Virus record (IMG/VR): IMGVR_UViG_2698536480_000008
DNA length: 15,191 nucleotides
Strand: one strand, 5' to 3'
Origin: a virus
Taxonomy: Duplodnaviria > Heunggongvirae > Uroviricota > Caudoviricetes
The position numbers and the translations under genes were made by a program. Below the pieces are notes generated by a model. It saw only the letters and a list, made by a program, of their open reading frames with translations. It was not told where the DNA came from and searched no databases. Within the stretch, counting starts at the first letter, position 1, and each line of letters opens with the position of its first letter. Shown piece after piece: positions 1 to 13,660 of this stretch.

Positions 1-156
1 TTACTCCCCAAGTTCGTAAGCTGTGAAGACAGCGACCTCCGTCTGGTCGGTTCGGATTCGTACCTCGCAGAGGTCTTTCCTCGTTACCAGTACCGTCACT
101 ATAACGGTTAAACAGATGACGATCAGGGCGACTAACATCGCCTTTTGCTGCTTCAT
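1..156 (-). CDS. hok: Hok/Gef-family type I toxin, 51 aa (HokD/HokC-like); an in-frame upstream extension to 213 gives a 70-aa mok-like ORF
   Basis: Minus-strand ORF ending at the TAA at 3..1. Translation from the internal ATG (156..154) is MKQQKAMLVALIVICLTVIVTVLVTRKDLCEVRIRTDQTEVAVFTAYELGE: a single transmembrane helix plus the conserved RKDLCEV.R motif of Hok/Gef toxins, very close to HokD/RelF as I remember it. Paralogue assignment is uncertain. Confidence 0.75.
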   Translation of the reverse strand: MKQQKAMLVALIVICLTVIVTVLVTRKDLCEVRIRTDQTEVAVFTAYELGE

Positions 157-415
157 AGCCTGCTTCTCCTTGCCTTTCGGCACGTAAGAGGCTAACCTAC
201 ATGTGCAAAGCATGAAATTGGCCTCAGATTAATGTTAAGCGTCTTGCCGGATGCGTAATGTTAACTGGGGCTTTTCTCTATCTGCCTTTGATGTTCATGC
301 CCGAGGCAGATAGCCTCAAGTATCCGCAGCTATTTGTCTGCTGTTACCACCTACCTGCGCCAATCACTGACTCTACAAAGATCTATCCGCGATAACATTT
401 TGAGTTTAAGAACTT

Positions 416-444
416 TTGCGTACGCACCAAAAGATGCATATACT
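416..444 (+). promoter_or_regulatory. Candidate sigma70 promoter (TTGCGT, 17-nt spacer, TATACT) for the ORF1-ORF2 operon
   Basis: -35 TTGCGT at 416-421, 17-nt spacer, -10 TATACT at 439-444, about 40 nt upstream of a GGAG ribosome-binding site and the ATG at 486. Found by eye; AT-rich DNA yields chance matches. Confidence 0.4.
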
Positions 445-485
445 AGACTAGTCATAGTTCTAATCTGCTTGATTATGGAGTCAGG

Positions 486-1544
486 ATGAGTTTCCTTTCT
501 GAACAAGACGTACAAAATTTAGTCATTAATAAAATGATCTTTCACGTTGTAGGTAAGAATCTTGAAGCACCGACACTTCTCAAAGAAATAAAACCAGTTC
601 AGCATGTGGATTTTTTTCTTGAACGTATCAAATCTTCACTGAAAGGAAATCTTTTCACTTTTCTGGAGAATTCAAATACCGAAAGAATCCTGCGTATCAT
701 TAGAGATAAAGCAGATGCTGAAGCTAATTGTTTTACAGAACAATCGAAGCTACTGGCCAGTGATTTTCAGTCACACCATTCTAGCGGTAACACGAGTATG
801 GGATGCTTTTTCTTATTTGAATTGGTTTCAGATAAGGAAAAATTCTATGCAATTATAAAATACGATAATGAAGATGTGGTTCGTTATGTTCTTGACGAAA
901 AGTTATCTGAAGAACAAATGCCTACTTTAGAAAGATTTCATGAAACTTTCGTAAAAAAAGCTGAGGCAATGCAAAAAATAGCGTTAATTCAACTTGATCC
1001 AAGTGGGAAAGGCGGGAAAGTTATTGTAAAAGACAGGAGTAAAAGAACCAATATTTCAGGATATTTTAAAGGCTTCTTAAATGTTAAAAGAGTCAACTCT
1101 GAAATTGAACTTTGCAATAAGCTTATTGATGCGCTGAAAATAACCTTCAAAAGGCATAAAGAATTATTGCCAGAGTCAATTCAAAAAAGCGGCGTAAATA
1201 AAATATATGAAGTTTTAAGCAGAGCTGATTTCGAATATAATCCTGAAGATGCTTCTCCGTTATTGACCAGCATTTTTGGGCCGTTAGATGAAAAATCACC
1301 AATTCTCAACACATTCAAAACTCAAACAAAAAATGCTGGTATTGAAGGCGAATCCTTTACTATAAAAGCAGATGGCATTCATAAACCACCAAGACGAAAA
1401 ATTGAAACTGCAGAAAGTGTAGTAATTAGTTATAATGAAGATGACCGTCCAGAAATAAGAAACTTAGATGATGGGCGAAAACAAATTATTGTTACTACTG
1501 CGAGGATTATTACTGATGACATCGATACTTCAAAAAATCGATGA
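486..1544 (+). CDS. Hypothetical soluble protein, 352 aa; possible distant NA37/NdpA(YejK)-like nucleoid-associated DNA-binding fold; first gene of the candidate cargo operon
   Basis: ATG at 486 preceded by GGAG (477-480); uninterrupted 352 codons in ~35% GC DNA; no hydrophobic segments. Local resemblance to YejK as remembered (GCFFLFELV vs GGFVLFCHY; GYFKGFL vs DFFMDFL; N-terminal I.H.. pattern). The 3' end overlaps ORF2 by 29 nt. Confidence 0.7.
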   Translation: MSFLSEQDVQNLVINKMIFHVVGKNLEAPTLLKEIKPVQHVDFFLERIKSSLKGNLFTFLENSNTERILRIIRDKADAEANCFTEQSKLLASDFQSHHSSGNTSMGCFFLFELVSDKEKFYAIIKYDNEDVVRYVLDEKLSEEQMPTLERFHETFVKKAEAMQKIALIQLDPSGKGGKVIVKDRSKRTNISGYFKGFLNVKRVNSEIELCNKLIDALKITFKRHKELLPESIQKSGVNKIYEVLSRADFEYNPEDASPLLTSIFGPLDEKSPILNTFKTQTKNAGIEGESFTIKADGIHKPPRRKIETAESVVISYNEDDRPEIRNLDDGRKQIIVTTARIITDDIDTSKNR

Positions 1545-2949
1545 GTCTATACAGGCGTCAAGGAAAGACCCTGAATTTTTGGCATCAGAATCAATAAAAA
1601 ATGATTCTGCGCGCGTTCTAATTTCTGCCAAAATGGACAAAGATGCACTCATTCTTTGGCAGTACGTTTACGAAAACGTACCAAATTGGATTGAAATTAC
1701 TGTTAAAGATGACTGTAATGATGAAGTAAAACCATCGTCATGCAGTGAAGGTGATAAACTTAACATTACGCTAAAATGCATTGCATTCGAAAATAACAGG
1801 TATATTTTTACGCTCGAAGGGTGGAATGTTTTTCTACACAATGATGATTTAGTATCAATAACCAATAAAGTGAATATTCTCGGTTTGAAACATGGATTTG
1901 AAACTTTAGGATATTCTGTTGAGCCATGGAACCATGCTCCAGAAAAAATTGAACCTAATGAAACCGTACGAACTTCAATCAATTTACAGAGCTACGTTAA
2001 ATTCTATTCTAGTGAGTTCATGCCTGCATCTGATATAGCTCCTTGGGTACTTTATAAAATGCCTGAGGCAGAGGACAACTTTTTCAAAAAATGGTTACAA
2101 GTTTCCTGCAATATGCTTTGTCGCACTCTCGTTAATGAATTATTAGCAGATGAAAAGAAATCAATTTGTTTAACTGGAAAGCCACCAAAAAAATTAATTT
2201 ATGGAGATCCAGACATTCTGCTTTCCGACTATTCAGTTTTACAAACTGTAATAAACTGGATCTTTATTGAGGGCAATGAGATTGAACTCAAACATACTTT
2301 CTTCACAAGTGAGTTAGCACGAGAATGGCCAGAGTATGTATCCTTCTGTGAGGGTTTACCAAAAAAACTCCCTATGGCCTTTGAGTCAGCAAAATTACTA
2401 TATAAGGCCCACATTCGCGCTAGCAGCAGAGAGACTATTAAATCTCTGTCCGATCTAAGGAAAACCTTAGCTGAAGACACGCAAAAAATAATAAGTCAGT
2501 CTAAAGACATCACATCCGCTCTTTGGAAAGATCTGGCTCTGGTTATAAGTCTATTTGCAATAAAATATGCGCTAGACGCATCAAAGATTAATATAACCAA
2601 TAACATATTCCCATATATGTTCTTCGCGTTATCTATATATATTTTTATATCTCAGGTTACAACTCTCTTCATAAATAAAAATTACTTTAAGATACTTGAT
2701 AATACTAGGCTAGTCTGGAGAGATAAACTATATGGTTTTCTTGATGATACTGACTATGAGAATCTTGCAGTCACACCATTAAGAGAGGCATACAAAGCTT
2801 ATCAGATTATAGCCACATTCGTTGTGATTCTGACTTTGCTGATTTCATTTATAATGATCATATTAGGATTCTCAATGCTTGATGAACATGCTACGAATGC
2901 AATTACCTCTTGGCTCAGTTCTCACTTAATCAATAGTTACTGTAGTTAA
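1516..2949 (+). CDS. Hypothetical membrane protein, 477 aa: ~360-aa N-terminal soluble domain plus two to three C-terminal transmembrane helices; candidate effector
   Basis: ATG at 1516 with GAGGA (1502-1506) 9 nt upstream, overlapping the ORF1 stop (translational coupling). The six-frame track begins at 1468 but that start has no ribosome-binding site. Strongly hydrophobic segments NIFPYMFFALSIYIFISQVTTLFI and YQIIATFVVILTLLISFIMIILGFSML, plus a weaker LALVISLFAIKYAL. No recognisable catalytic motif. Confidence 0.7.
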   Translation: MTSILQKIDESIQASRKDPEFLASESIKNDSARVLISAKMDKDALILWQYVYENVPNWIEITVKDDCNDEVKPSSCSEGDKLNITLKCIAFENNRYIFTLEGWNVFLHNDDLVSITNKVNILGLKHGFETLGYSVEPWNHAPEKIEPNETVRTSINLQSYVKFYSSEFMPASDIAPWVLYKMPEAEDNFFKKWLQVSCNMLCRTLVNELLADEKKSICLTGKPPKKLIYGDPDILLSDYSVLQTVINWIFIEGNEIELKHTFFTSELAREWPEYVSFCEGLPKKLPMAFESAKLLYKAHIRASSRETIKSLSDLRKTLAEDTQKIISQSKDITSALWKDLALVISLFAIKYALDASKINITNNIFPYMFFALSIYIFISQVTTLFINKNYFKILDNTRLVWRDKLYGFLDDTDYENLAVTPLREAYKAYQIIATFVVILTLLISFIMIILGFSMLDEHATNAITSWLSSHLINSYCS

Positions 2950-2976
2950 TTTAAGGCGAGAGAAACTCGCCTTAAA
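2950..2976. terminator. GC-rich stem-loop between the convergent ORF2 and Q-like gene stops; possible bidirectional terminator or RNA-stability hairpin, non-canonical
   Basis: tttAAGGCGAG-agaaa-CTCGCCTTaaa: an 8-11 bp perfect stem with a 5-nt loop, flanked by T3 upstream and A6 downstream on the plus strand. Neither transcript gets a proper U-tract immediately 3' of the stem, so intrinsic termination is uncertain. Confidence 0.35.
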
Positions 2977-2979
2977 AAA

Positions 2980-3498
2980 TCAACGGTAATAGATACAACC
3001 TGCAATAAATCCCATTGCCATTTGCATTTTTTTCCTTATTTTACCATCTGAACATTCGTTTATCTTAGCTAAACAACGCAATGAAACTCCCATAACAAAA
3101 TGAGCGATAATTAACTCATAGTCATCTATCCTATATTGTTTAAGCCTCAACATGCAGGTATCAATTATACCCCCTTCATCATTGCTGCACTGACGACGTG
3201 ATTTTTTACCATGAGGAACAACATTTTTATATTTATCAGCTATTTCCTGCCAATCAATAGAACTATTTTCAGCTACAGCCCAGGCTCCCCAACCGTCCAA
3301 AATATCATATATATTAGCATTGCTATCTACCTGTTTTTTATATTCTTTTTTGAAGCGCGCAAGAAGCATCCTAGCCATCGTTATTATTTCTATACTTGTA
3401 ACTGATTCATAAGCATCAGGAGAAATAATTCTCCCATCACTTAATGCCCCATCACTAAGATTTGCTATTTCCAATAATCGTTCTTTAGTTATTTCCAT
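2980..3498 (-). CDS. Phage antitermination protein Q homologue (Q82/Q933W-type, Phage_antitermQ-like C-terminal domain) with a ~60-aa N-terminal extension
   Basis: Minus-strand ORF. The ATG at 3498..3496 has GGAG 6 nt upstream; the track start at 3510 is a GTG. The C-terminal ~115 aa carry motifs I recognise from Q of Stx phages: WGAWA, SRRQC..DEGGIIDTCMLRLK, Y.LI..HFVMG.S, CSDGKI.K. The gene is AT-rich (~35% GC), unlike the backbone. Confidence 0.55.
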   Translation of the reverse strand: MEITKERLLEIANLSDGALSDGRIISPDAYESVTSIEIITMARMLLARFKKEYKKQVDSNANIYDILDGWGAWAVAENSSIDWQEIADKYKNVVPHGKKSRRQCSNDEGGIIDTCMLRLKQYRIDDYELIIAHFVMGVSLRCLAKINECSDGKIRKKMQMAMGFIAGCIYYR

Positions 3499-3658
3499 TA
3501 TTATCTCCACCGCCTTTTCGGGCGGCCTCCTGATGATTTGAGAGTGCAGGAATTCCTCCGATTAAGGACTCTATTTTATTCACAGTGCTGAATTTAATTA
3601 TTCAGATTTGGATTATGCTTTCTCTTTCACTTCACCAAGTTCCGATTATTAATTTGGC

Positions 3659-4081
3659 TCACAACAGCACCTCTTGAAAGTTTCCCCGATAAAACGCCAG
3701 TACACGCTGCATAACTTCTCTTTTACGGCACTCACTACAAATTATATTATGACGCCTGTCGTAACGACGTATTTCTCCGTCAGATAACGAGCAGATAAGG
3801 TCAGGATCAACCATAACCGGTTCCTTCGACTTTGCACTCGAGAGTTTTTTGCTGGCGTTTTGCCAGTCTTTACGTGCCTGCTCAGACGGGAATAACCCGT
3901 AGCCAGAGTTGTATACGTAACCACTCGAAACCAGCTCTTTGGCGAGAATACTTATCAGATATCTGGTTGCCCCTGTTTTAGCTTCCAGTTGTCGTAACGT
4001 CTCTCGCTCACTCTGGCGTACGAGATCAACAATCTGCCCTTTAATTTTTTCTCGCTCTTCCTGTGTTAATACTTTTGCCAT
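3659..4081 (-). CDS. Hypothetical prophage protein, 140 aa, with a Cys/His-containing C-terminus
   Basis: ATG at 4081..4079 preceded by a strong GGGGAGGG ribosome-binding site; the track start at 4147 has none. Sits 16 nt downstream of the preceding gene on the same strand. No motif recognised. Confidence 0.5.
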   Translation of the reverse strand: MAKVLTQEEREKIKGQIVDLVRQSERETLRQLEAKTGATRYLISILAKELVSSGYVYNSGYGLFPSEQARKDWQNASKKLSSAKSKEPVMVDPDLICSLSDGEIRRYDRRHNIICSECRKREVMQRVLAFYRGNFQEVLL

Positions 4082-4097: not shown

Positions 4098-4859
4098 TCA
4101 CTTTTCCGACACAATACGACTGGAGGAATCGACAATCTGACGGACAATATCCTGGTGCTTGTTCAACTCACGCAGCGCGGCGCAGACACGCTCCCACTTC
4201 TGGACATGATTTTTCGCCCGACGCAGTTCGCGGTTTGCCATATGCAGTGATGGTAAAACCAGGTCATCCGCTCGCGTTTCAGTAAACGATGGCAGCGACT
4301 GCACAATGTCCGCCACAGTTTCTGTTTTAATATCTTCCTGTGTTGCAGCCTCCTGTACTGGTAACGCAACACCTGCGGTCTGAGGAAAGGCCTTACCATC
4401 AGTTTCCGCTACCGATGCTGCTTTCGGCTCTGCTGGTAAATTATCGCCCGGTATGCAGTAACGAAATTTACCGCCCTGATTTACGCGAATCAGACGACCT
4501 TTGCTGATTGCCATTGCCAGCGTTGAAGCCACTTTGCGTGATGTGGTACCAAACAATGTAGCCAGCTCATCAGCCGTTTGTGGTCCTCGTTGTTCAATCG
4601 TCGCGGTTAAATCGCACTCTGAGATTTTCGCTACTGTTGCTGTGGTGATTTCTTCCGGCAGTTCTGCCTGCGCTGGCTGTTCCTGCTGAACATTGTTATC
4701 AGCCACACGCCAGGTGTACGCGCTTTTATCAACAAAACCAGCCTTTTTCAGTTCCCATAGTTCGTTCAGCACTTCTTCACGACTGATATCAAGTCGCGCA
4801 GCAAGTTCTATGGATGTGGCTTTTCCCATTGCTTTCAGTGCGTCAAAAACAGTCTCCAT
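4098..4859 (-). CDS. Hypothetical prophage protein, 254 aa; possibly a full-length counterpart of the YdaW-type protein that follows ydaV in Rac
   Basis: ATG at 4859..4857 with a GGGAG ribosome-binding site, 22 nt downstream of the ydaV stop. N-terminus [43 protein letters not shown] looks like a winged-helix domain. Family assignment from memory is uncertain. Confidence 0.55.
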
Positions 4860-4881
4860 TAAATTTTTCTCCCGGTAAAAA

Positions 4882-5628
4882 TTACTTCGCAATTCCTGGC
4901 TGGACGACATTCGGACGCCAGCTCTCCCAGTTAAAATTCACCCATCGCCCGCCGTTCATGGTCATGCGATCCATAATCCGCTCGCCGAGCAATGTTTTCA
5001 TGGCCTCATAGTTCAGGTTTGTCAGCATCCCCACGCTGCGCATCGACGCTGTCCGGCGATCAACAATCTGGTACAGTACCACCTGCTCGTTTTTCGTCTC
5101 GCGCTGAATGCCAATTTCATCAAGAACCAGCAGATCCACTTCGCACAGTTCCCGCAAAAATTTTTCGCCTGACTGCCCATCGTCATAGCTGGCGTGCAGG
5201 GCACTCATAACATCAGCCACGGTAACCACAATCACTGTCTGACCGTCTTTCAGCAGGCGATTCCCGATAGCTGCCGCTAAGTGGTTCTTCCCGGTACCAG
5301 GTTTTCCGCTGAACGCAAAATTTGTACACCCGGTCATCAGTTCATCAGCGATGGATTTCGCCTGACTCAACGCGTATCGCTGCCCTTCGTTCTGCACCTG
5401 GTAATTCGAAAACGAGCATTTGCGGTGCAATGGCTGGATGCCAGAGCGATTCAGAATTTTTTCCACCCGCAACTGACGATTCTGACGGTTGATCTCCTCA
5501 CAACGTTTCTGGCCTTCGGAAAGTTGCCACTCGCGCCACTCCGCTACCGTCTTGAATGGCGCGGTTACATGTGACGGGGCCAGTCTGCGGATACGTTCAA
5601 GAACATCGCCTGTCGCAATATTTTTCAT
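4882..5628 (-). CDS. ydaV: DnaC/IstB-like AAA+ replication helicase-loader protein, 248 aa
   Basis: Walker A-like [15 protein letters not shown] and Walker B LLVLDEIG. Length and position after the 285-aa replication protein match Rac ydaV. Confidence 0.85.
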
Positions 5629-5634
5629 GGTCAG

Positions 5635-6492
5635 TTACCCCCTGAAGCCTGGCGGGATCGCACTATCCGGTAACGAGACGGTGTTAACCTGTCGGAGTAA
5701 CGTCTCAGGTCGAACACCTTTCGGCGCGAACAAGCCCTGGTATTCATTGGCGATGCTGTGTCGAATCACCTGCTCAGGTGAAAAACCCTGCTGGCGGAAT
5801 TTTTCCAGCTCCCGTATCGCCCCGTTAGCGCCCTGCTCCGTTCGAATCGGTTTTCGCAATGCCTGGCGAAATTCAACCCACTCACGCCAAAGCGAGACAG
5901 AAATCCAGTTCGGCAAAGTAATATCCAGAGGGTCAAACTTTTTGACACCTCGATTCCCCCGGGGGGGATTTAGGGGGGGATCTGTTTTTAGATCTTTATC
6001 TGTATCTTTATTAGTTGCCTTTGTGTTGACATCATGTTCAAACACCACTTCAACATCTGTTTGAACACCTGTTAAATTTCTCTCTTGTTTTGTTTGAACA
6101 TCTGCTTCCTTTCTGCTTCTTCTGGCCTGAACAGATGCTTTTCCTGCGGCTGATTTTTTGGTTAATTTTTCCCTGACTGATGCCAGATCTTCCTCAATCC
6201 GAAGATGCACCCATTCCTCGCCGTTATCGCAAAAAAACTCCTGCAAGGATGGTTCAACATCAGCCCATCGCTCGTTAGTCAGACGGGCAATTTTTGCCAG
6301 CCTGTTTTTAGGTATTGGCTTTCCTGTTTGCCAGTAATTGAACATCAGCAACAAATACGCACCATGCTCCTCTGCTGACAAATGCATGGTGTCAGCCAGG
6401 TAATCAGCTATGTACAGTTGCATGTATGGTAATGCGGCCATAATTGCCCCGTATGATGCTGCCCGGTGGCTTAGAATAAGCACAAACAGCAT
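5635..6492 (-). CDS. ydaU: Rac prophage replication-initiation-like protein (YdaU/DUF1376 type), 285 aa
   Basis: 285-codon ORF immediately upstream of ydaV on the same strand, with a 6-nt gap. Length and synteny match K-12 YdaU. The annotated start at 6492 has no obvious ribosome-binding site; an internal ATG at 6441 (MAALPYMQLY) is an alternative. Confidence 0.8.
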   Translation of the reverse strand: MLFVLILSHRAASYGAIMAALPYMQLYIADYLADTMHLSAEEHGAYLLLMFNYWQTGKPIPKNRLAKIARLTNERWADVEPSLQEFFCDNGEEWVHLRIEEDLASVREKLTKKSAAGKASVQARRSRKEADVQTKQERNLTGVQTDVEVVFEHDVNTKATNKDTDKDLKTDPPLNPPRGNRGVKKFDPLDITLPNWISVSLWREWVEFRQALRKPIRTEQGANGAIRELEKFRQQGFSPEQVIRHSIANEYQGLFAPKGVRPETLLRQVNTVSLPDSAIPPGFRG

Positions 6493-13263: not shown

Positions 13264-13458
13264 ATGAGATATGACAATGTTAAACCATGTCCATTTTGTG
13301 GTTGTCCATCAGTAACGGTGAAAGCCATTTCAGGATATTACCGAGCGAAGTGTAACGGATGCGAATCCCGAACCGGTTATGGTGGAAGTGAAAAAGAAGC
13401 ACTCGAAAGATGGAATAAACGAACCACTGGAAATAATAATGGAGGTGTTCATGTATAA
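13264..13458 (+). CDS. ralR: RalR (Lar) restriction-alleviation protein / type I toxin DNase, 64 aa
   Basis: MRYDNVKPCPFCGCPSVTVKAISGYYRAKCNGCESRTGYGGSEKEALERWNKRTTGNNNGGVHV from the ATG at 13264; Cys4 zinc-ribbon pattern; located between recT and ydaC. Confidence 0.8.
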   Translation: MRYDNVKPCPFCGCPSVTVKAISGYYRAKCNGCESRTGYGGSEKEALERWNKRTTGNNNGGVHV

Positions 13459-13660
13459 AATTACCGCCACTATTGAAAAGGAAGGTGGCACTCCTACTAA
13501 CTGGACAAGATATTCAAAATCTAAACTAACGAAATCAGAATGCGAAAAAATGCTCTCAGGTAAAAAAGAAGCAGGCGTTTCCAGAGAGCAGAAAGTAAAA
13601 CTGATAAATTTTAATTGCGCGAAACTTCAGTCCTCGAGAATTGCATTGTATTCAAATTAA
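13451..13660 (+). CDS. ydaC: Rac prophage protein YdaC, 69 aa
   Basis: ATG at 13451 with a GGAGGT ribosome-binding site (13441-13446), overlapping the ralR 3' end by 8 nt; MYKITATIEKEGGTPTNWTRYSKSKLTKSECEKMLSGKKEAGVSREQKVKLINFNCAKLQSSRIALYSN. Confidence 0.75.
   Translation: MYKITATIEKEGGTPTNWTRYSKSKLTKSECEKMLSGKKEAGVSREQKVKLINFNCAKLQSSRIALYSN

Follow-up and report, generated by a model that had tools for sequence, protein, structure and literature searches.

In the 15,191-nucleotide (nt) stretch of Caudoviricetes DNA analyzed here (IMG/VR virus record IMGVR_UViG_2698536480_000008, hereafter the window), two overlapping open reading frames, ORF1 and ORF2, probably constitute a defence pair coupled to a nucleoid-associated protein (NAP), in which ORF2 would act as the membrane effector. 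The pair is also likely to be translationally coupled, horizontally mobile and similar to the type II PANGU systems, and to be carried as cargo by a Rac-like prophage. The defence-effector reading is based on the obligate NA37 partner of ORF2, the cargo-slot context, the type II PANGU architecture and the DefensePredictor score of ORF1. The components of the pair are the following, with amino acid (aa) positions counted from the ORF2 start at 1516 and TM standing for transmembrane.

Positions 486 to 1544, + strand: ORF1 (352 aa), a divergent YejK-like nucleoid-associated protein (NA37), proposed sensor, PagA-like
Positions 1516 to 1544, + strand: out-of-frame overlap of 29 nt between the ORF1 stop and the ORF2 start, from the sequence and the PGAP coordinates
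Positions 1516 to 2949, + strand: ORF2 (477 aa, WP_046788432.1), proposed membrane effector, PagB-like, with the PGAP start
Positions 1516 to 2343, + strand: acidic alpha/beta N-terminal domain of ORF2 (aa 1-276), proposed to be NAP-binding and 'DMK'-like
Positions 2344 to 2523, + strand: basic amphipathic juxtamembrane helical stalk (aa 277-336; helices 277-303 and 305-355; top-residue frequency 0.55)
Positions 2524 to 2583, + strand: TM1 (aa 337-356), the weakly hydrophobic helix WKDLALVISLFAIKYALDAS, from hydropathy and the AlphaFold2 model
Positions 2605 to 2676, + strand: TM2 (aa 364-387), N-terminal part of the modelled helix 364-404
Positions 2677 to 2799, + strand: TM2-TM3 helix-turn-helix (aa 388-428), from conservation and amphipathicity
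Positions 2800 to 2880, + strand: TM3 (aa 429-455), the strongest membrane helix by hydropathy and Hessa sum
Positions 2881 to 2946, + strand: variable C-terminal tail without lysine or arginine (aa 456-477; conservation 0.09)

The original prediction placed a TM module with two strongly hydrophobic helices and a weaker one at the C-terminus of ORF2 (positions 2518 to 2880), and this was confirmed by hydropathy relative to shuffled sequences, by conservation in 95% of homologues and by the helices of the AlphaFold2 model. The interval corresponds to aa 335-455 of ORF2, and the two peptides pointed out as hydrophobic helices, NIFPYMFFALSIYIFISQVTTLFI and YQIIATFVVILTLLISFIMIILGFSML, are found at aa 362-385 and aa 429-455, respectively. 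Hydropathy was calculated on the Kyte-Doolittle scale in 19-residue windows, with 2000 shuffles of the ORF2 protein as the null. The maximum of TM3 reached 3.07 (aa 431-449), compared with shuffled maxima averaging 1.83 with a 95th percentile of 2.37; TM2 peaked at 1.94 (aa 368-386) and the weak third segment (aa 335-358) at approximately 1.5 (aa 340-358), and all windows before aa 331 were at or below 1.2. The apolar runs comprise 27 consecutive residues in TM3 and 24 in TM2, both helices being flanked by aromatic or charged belts. Crude Hessa sums amounted to -5.2 kcal/mol for TM3 and, in a position-independent form, to approximately +7.7 kcal/mol for TM1, so the latter is not considered an autonomous TM helix.

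The soluble, acidic N-terminal part that precedes TM1, TM2 and TM3 was free of hydrophobic stretches, as had been predicted, but it is approximately 336 aa long instead of the 360 aa originally given, a count that was apparently made from an upstream ATG at 1468, to which the ORF2 frame extends. The start of ORF2 was taken as 1516 because the PGAP start, the Shine-Dalgarno sequence GAGGA at 1502-1506, located 10 nt before the ATG at 1516, and the alignment of 34 homologues from this methionine are all in agreement.

Conservation was evaluated in 219 full-length ORF2 homologues, using a Kyte-Doolittle threshold of 1.6. TM2 and TM3 each exceeded this value in 95% of the homologues, whereas the weak helix TM1 exceeded it in just 11%. 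The sequences of TM2 and TM3 are poorly conserved (top-residue frequency 0.33-0.36), and since their hydrophobicity is kept while the sequence varies, both helices are read as lipid-facing. At the start of TM1, residues W337 and D339 are nearly invariant.

The AlphaFold2 model of full ORF2, built on a 35-sequence alignment (predicted local distance difference test, pLDDT, 87; predicted template modelling score, pTM, 0.70), puts the hydrophobic segments in the long helices 305-355, 364-404 and 411-454. The first of these is continuous, with the conserved stalk running into the weak TM1; after a short loop, the second comprises TM2 and an amphipathic extension, and after a turn, the third comprises an amphipathic segment and TM3. 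TM2 and TM3 are separated by exactly 41 aa in nearly all 219 homologues, and this spacer contains approximately 7 lysine or arginine (K/R) residues. The resulting hairpin is amphipathic (hydrophobic moment, muH, 0.36-0.37), its residues W401 and P421 reach a conservation of at least 90%, and its consensus includes WRxKLYGFLDDxDYxxLA. A cytoplasmic location with packing against the stalk is proposed for the hairpin, and a periplasmic one for the C-terminal tail, whose length varies from 0 to 79 aa across the family. The K/R counts (7 ahead of TM1, 1 between TM1 and TM2, 7 within the 41-aa hairpin and none in the tail) fit the predicted N-in, three-span topology, which is uncertain because of the weakness of TM1.

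Modelled alone with AlphaFold2, the N-terminal 276 residues reached a pLDDT of 93.7 and a pTM of 0.90. Residues 1-270 carry a net charge of -14 (pI 4.8), and the domain is net negative in 219/219 homologues (median -12); at the same time, it is the least conserved structured part of ORF2. The stalk (aa 276-336) has a net charge of +4, and aa 256-336 is the most conserved region of the family, including helix 256-275 (top-residue frequency 0.56), residues A292, K309, L314, R315 and K316, each conserved in at least 90% of the 219 sequences, and the motifs ELKHTF..ELAREW and LLYKAHIR.GSKETLKSLSDLRKTLAED (stalk consensus LLYKAHIRxGSKETLKSLSDLRKTLAED). A HEPN-like Rx4-6H motif, sought by eye among the conserved histidine and arginine residues of the stalk, was absent.

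The original prediction also described the module as typical of membrane-disrupting effectors that act on activation. The domain order and the role as effector of an activatable system are supported by the NA37 partner, the cargo slot, the type II PANGU likeness and the DefensePredictor score; the word typical did not hold, as the module could not be assigned to any known membrane-effector family. ORF2 had no Pfam, PADLOC, NCBIfam or PHROG family match. Pfam scans of the 35 aligned members gave no SLATT family (E ≤ 1) and only sub-threshold matches to Ni_hydr_CYTB (3/35) and Saf_2TM (1/35), both driven by TM composition, and membership in Saf_2TM was rejected (14 bits against a cut-off of 29.5). 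TM effectors of abortive-infection systems, such as Saf_2TM/Cap14, SLATT, PycTM, Kiwa KwaA and RexB, generally combine a cytoplasmic sensing or ligand-binding part with a small helical TM module; ORF2 belongs to none of the Saf_2TM, SLATT or PADLOC-covered TM effector families. All 101 homologues retrieved for ORF2 are named 'hypothetical', and the family comprises 668 clusters at 50% identity (E ≤ 1e-3). Searches of PDB sequences with ORF1 and with the ORF2 profile found nothing below E = 0.1, and a Foldseek search of the full ORF2 model against PDB found nothing at E ≤ 1e-3; ORF2 has no solved structural relative, and its fold is not matched in PDB.

The upstream gene of the pair, ORF1, is identical to RefSeq WP_001586997.1, named 'nucleoid-associated protein', and matches Pfam NA37 over profile positions 1-316 of 325 (E = 1.2e-12; 48.3 bits, cut-off 24.6) as well as PHROG 1974 (E = 4e-8). 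No match to the NCBIfam YejK equivalog was obtained at E ≤ 0.1, and since the housekeeping YejK model is not matched, ORF1 is regarded as a divergent, mobile NA37 paralogue. It is preceded by the Shine-Dalgarno sequence GGAG at 477-480, and the ORF1/ORF2 overlap suggests translational coupling of the two genes.

The pairing was surveyed in one genome per species, giving 69 loci that encode an ORF2 relative. An ORF1-like gene lies directly upstream on the same strand in all 69, overlapping the estimated ORF2 start by 16-40 nt. The ORF2 family is obligately paired with an NA37 gene and was never alone in the loci examined. In the contexts inspected individually (Methylomonas, Sphingomonas, Methylobacterium, an Escherichia coli integrase island and a metagenome contig), precomputed Pfam annotation identified the upstream gene as NA37, and the overlap likewise measured 16-40 nt. 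The overlaps measure 16, 19, 28, 31, 37 or 40 nt and are out of frame in 69/69 loci. An overlap between NAP and effector genes of such unusual length and strict conservation may have a role, for example in the control of stoichiometry.

Two-gene anti-phage operons consisting of a YejK-like NAP (PagA) and an effector (PagB) were described in April 2026 under the name of PANGU (bioRxiv 10.64898/2026.04.06.716658). In type II, which corresponds to Cluster 2 of that preprint and is spread across phyla, the NAP sensor Pag2A is accompanied by Pag2B, with an acidic NAP-binding N-domain and a C-terminal domain labelled as TM in the AlphaFold analysis of the authors. With PANGU-Ecu, taken from a uropathogenic E. 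coli (UPEC) strain, T4 plaque numbers fell by 3-4 logs; both genes were required, neither was toxic alone, no toxicity occurred without phage, and growth arrest at high multiplicity of infection was abortive-infection-like (10.64898/2026.04.06.716658). This response to T4 is triggered when host DNA is degraded in an EndoII-dependent manner (10.64898/2026.04.06.716658). The acidic N-domain of Pag2B binds Pag2A with a dissociation constant (KD) of 19 nM, T4 escapes type II PANGU through denA (EndoII) mutations, and Pag2A-GFP leaves the nucleoid upon infection, while the way in which Pag2A engages and activates Pag2B 'remains to be determined' (10.64898/2026.04.06.716658).

Several features of type II PANGU are found in the locus studied here: a YejK-like NA37 protein is encoded, matched by Pfam over nearly its full length; the genes form a bicistron less than 40 bp apart, with their 29-nt overlap; and the partner has a C-terminal TM domain. 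The acidity of the N-domain (net -14, negative in 219/219) matches that of the type II PANGU 'DMK' (DNA-mimic) domain. Both systems have the NA37 gene first and a partner with an acidic N-domain and C-terminal TM region, have an E. coli example, and occur as mobile, inter-phylum, defence-linked loci. The present copy differs from PANGU-Ecu in being prophage cargo in the Rac late-control region, and it may be the very system tested in the preprint. An independent indication comes from DefensePredictor (Science 2026, PMC13092281), where the available part of Table S10 lists WP_001586997.1 as 'Predicted novel defense gene' with a mean log-odds of 8.42, the strict log-odds cut-off being 4.

By analogy with these systems, a mechanism can be proposed for the pair. 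In the uninfected cell, ORF1 would be located on the chromosomal DNA, and ORF2 would reside inactive in the inner membrane, its acidic N-domain facing the cytoplasm. Degradation of the host chromosome by a phage nuclease would free ORF1, which would then dock on the acidic, DNA-like N-domain of ORF2. The signal would be transmitted via the basic stalk (aa 256-336) and the 41-aa hairpin (aa 388-428) to the membrane module (aa 337-455), whose rearrangement or oligomerization would compromise the inner membrane and stop both growth and phage production, that is, abortive infection. Membrane permeabilization as the final killing step is put forward only tentatively, at slightly below an even chance. 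The conservation pattern fits the mechanism, with a variable NAP-facing domain, constrained transmission elements, and lipid-facing helices in which only hydrophobicity is kept; a variable N-domain is expected because it would co-evolve with the NAP partner.

Some points weigh against this interpretation. TM1 is too polar and too short for an autonomous membrane helix. The locus is known here from its sequence and a structural model, and defence against T4 would apply to it by analogy with PANGU-Ecu. Likewise, its assignment to type II PANGU, including any homology to Pag2A and Pag2B, is putative and was made by comparison of architecture. Finally, ORF2 itself was not found among the Table S10 entries listed in the available part of that table (PMC13092281).

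Another system relevant for comparison is DS-1, validated in E. coli by DefensePredictor and composed of WP_000355468.1, an NA37 protein, and WP_000150292.1, a TM protein, whose TM region was predicted by the authors at aa 269-404 (PMC13092281). Like the present pair, DS-1 consists of a YejK-domain protein and a partner, of approximately 400 aa, with a soluble N-terminal part of net charge -8 and a C-terminal TM region. Examined by eye, the TM region of DS-1B shows two short hydrophobic segments, a polar helical insert of approximately 70 aa and a third hydrophobic segment. A relationship between ORF2 and DS-1B was rejected (hhalign probability 0.3%; -0.1 bits with the hidden Markov model of the 219-sequence family), as was one between ORF1 and DS-1A, for which BLASTP gave no match and only the Pfam NA37 domain class is common. 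In addition, an N-terminal zinc ribbon is present in DS-1A but not in ORF1, and the DS-1 genes do not overlap in the manner of ORF1 and ORF2. The common plan of DS-1B and ORF2 in the absence of sequence similarity reflects either convergence or extreme divergence, and because ORF1/ORF2 are unlike DS-1, at least two sequence-unrelated families of NAP and TM effector exist in E. coli.

Type I PANGU, formed by the NAP Pag1A and the GRel toxSAS Pag1B, shares with the proposed mechanism a NAP that is freed from the degraded nucleoid and binds an acidic DNA-mimic domain. It differs in its effector, a soluble alarmone synthetase whose DNA-mimic domain is C-terminal; in ORF2, the C-terminus consists of membrane helices and an enzymatic domain is absent. 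Going beyond the type II comparison, the NAP-gated membrane effectors of the ORF2 family could represent a lineage separate from that tested as PANGU, with TM1 lying on the stalk at rest and inserting as a hairpin with TM2 once the NAP docks on the acidic domain. This extension is unlikely on balance; if true, it would imply a conditional-insertion switch in place of a pre-formed gated pore, and NAP sensors would have recruited membrane effectors at least twice, convergently.

Regarding its genomic context, the window matches, with 100% identity, a Rac-like lambdoid prophage inserted at ttcA in E. coli 13E0767. The ORF1-ORF2 cassette has a GC content of approximately 34%, compared with approximately 48% in the flanks, and is located between hok/sok and Q on the strand opposite to the phage genes. 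The surrounding features are the following.

Positions 1 to 156, - strand: hok (RefSeq Hok/Gef), type I toxin-antitoxin system
Positions 151 to 325, - strand: sok RNA (Rfam RF01794, 99 bits)
Positions 326 to 485, + strand: upstream intergenic region of the cassette, with the -10-like sequence TATACT at 439-444 and TTGCGT 17 nt upstream
Positions 2950 to 2976, no strand assigned: 11-bp GC-rich hairpin between the convergent ORF2 and Q (minimum free energy -15.4 kcal/mol, z = -4.5 relative to shuffles)
Positions 2980 to 3510, - strand: antiterminator Q gene, of low GC content (Pfam scan)
Positions 13457 to 13635, - strand: RalA antitoxin small RNA of the ralR/ralA type I toxin-antitoxin system (Rfam RF02694, 223 bits)

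In a related prophage of strain ATCC 43896, the corresponding slot, flanked by hokD and Q, is occupied by another two-gene cargo on the + strand (4566 to 5975 of the extracted locus), encoding a DUF6731 protein of 304 aa and a hypothetical protein of 159 aa. The hok/sok-Q site is therefore considered an exchangeable cargo slot, and the ATCC 43896 cargo is a possible, uncharacterised defence candidate. The remainder of the window corresponds to a standard Rac prophage (ydaSTUV, racR, sieB, kilR, recET, ralR, xis and int).

A promoter is predicted in the intergenic region upstream of the cassette from its -10-like and TTGCGT elements; a consensus scan of 150 to 3700 for promoters and terminators performed no better than on shuffles and did not call it. 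The hairpin downstream of ORF2 is possibly a terminator or a stabiliser of RNA ends, although it has no canonical U-tract on either strand and the terminator scan made no call there.

The cassette is sporadic in E. coli, being present in 30 of 5426 complete genomes (0.55%). For the Q allele at ≥99% identity, the number of complete E. coli genomes is likewise exactly 30, and approximately 25 further genomes have a Q allele of 88-90% identity. Given the equal counts, joint movement of Q and the cassette as a single block is possible. In E. coli YZ_2_2 (NZ_CM146015.1, 2575766 to 2579566), the cassette is split by an IS5-like ISKpn26 element of approximately 1.2 kb, annotated between the NAP and hypothetical genes, which is a natural knockout. 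A megablast search of the cassette against phage and plasmid collections found no near-identical copy.

More distant relatives of the pair are widely distributed. The 69 loci belong mostly to Alpha-, Beta- and Gammaproteobacteria, together with Terriglobus (Acidobacteriota) and a Bacteroidetes metagenome-assembled genome, and the pair was detected on plasmids of Pantoea, Rhizobium, Methylocystis, Klebsiella and Enterobacter. The temperate Thiobacimonas phage vB_ThpS-P1 carries it beside Cro/CI (genes 052/051); the annotated start of its NAP gene is approximately 100 codons too far downstream, and the open frame upstream of this start holds the conserved motif MIFHVVG. Neighbours of the pair include VapBC, a Multi_ubiq/ThiF/RNase_T cluster, an integrase, a 1700-aa NERD-helicase protein and an SMC-like ATPase. 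In Sphingomonas, the genes downstream of the pair encode RNase_T, three unannotated proteins, a Multi_ubiq protein and a DUF6791-ThiF (E1-like) protein, a cluster that resembles bacterial ubiquitin-like conjugation defence operons.

Other explanations for the pair have to be weighed. In Kiwa, a pair of membrane protein (KwaA) and DNA-binding protein (KwaB) can work in reversed polarity. By the same logic, ORF2 could be a membrane sensor of phage attachment or DNA entry that licenses the NAP, with the latter as the effector, coating or blocking phage DNA without membrane damage. The lack of a pore-family signature in the TM module of ORF2 would be compatible with this reversal, and in one place the preprint describes PagB as possibly being a 'phage sensor that licenses PagA' (10.64898/2026.04.06.716658). 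Nevertheless, it appears improbable, as T4 escape through denA and the departure of Pag2A from the nucleoid were observed in the same architecture, and the PagB partner of type I is a demonstrably toxic enzyme (10.64898/2026.04.06.716658). Those two type II observations are the reason for regarding the NAP as the sensor. A membership in Kiwa (KwaA TM protein and KwaB DUF4868) was also rejected, with no PADLOC match for either protein (E ≤ 1) and no DUF4868 in the Pfam scan, and the missing PADLOC match speaks against the reversed roles too.

Alternatively, ORF2 could be a membrane anchor that acts without permeabilization, either by dragging NAP-bound DNA to the membrane or by superinfection exclusion at DNA entry. 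The prophage location, near the exclusion and toxin genes sieB, hok/sok and ralR, would suit such a function, as would the weakness of TM1 and the fact that the most conserved parts of ORF2 are cytoplasmic helices and not TM segments. However, the same architecture was reported as abortive-infection-like and not as exclusion (10.64898/2026.04.06.716658), and the pair is also found outside prophages, on chromosomes and plasmids, which makes an anchor decidedly improbable. A role outside immunity, as a toxin-antitoxin addiction module or a housekeeping tether between nucleoid and membrane, is very improbable: a tightly coupled two-gene cassette that occurs on mobile elements and adjoins hok/sok would be in line with it, but in the type II system that was tested, toxicity was not seen with either gene on its own (10.64898/2026.04.06.716658), the sporadic distribution and the cargo slot speak against housekeeping, and ORF1 scores highly in the part of the DefensePredictor table that was available (PMC13092281). 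It is scarcely credible that the hydrophobic helices belong to a soluble helical bundle and are buried in its core, given the long apolar runs of TM3 and TM2, the retention of hydrophobicity and not of sequence in 95% of the homologues, and the TM label in the AlphaFold analysis of the preprint (10.64898/2026.04.06.716658).

The NAP-coupled defence pair with ORF2 as membrane effector does not open a new category, because systems of this kind were published in 2026 and ORF1 is already included in the available part of a predicted-defence list. NAP-based sensing of phage-induced chromosome destruction is, however, a very recent concept, and its type II branch has a membrane effector that was, as of the preprint, without a known killing mechanism. 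The locus provides a copy that occurs naturally in an E. coli prophage, has a confident structural model and belongs to a large family, and the map of constrained positions (the stalk at aa 256-336, W337/D339, and W401/P421 of the 41-aa hairpin) makes the activation of Pag2B-type proteins accessible to mutagenesis. It also indicates that Rac-type prophages carry such systems in the exchangeable slot between hok/sok and Q.

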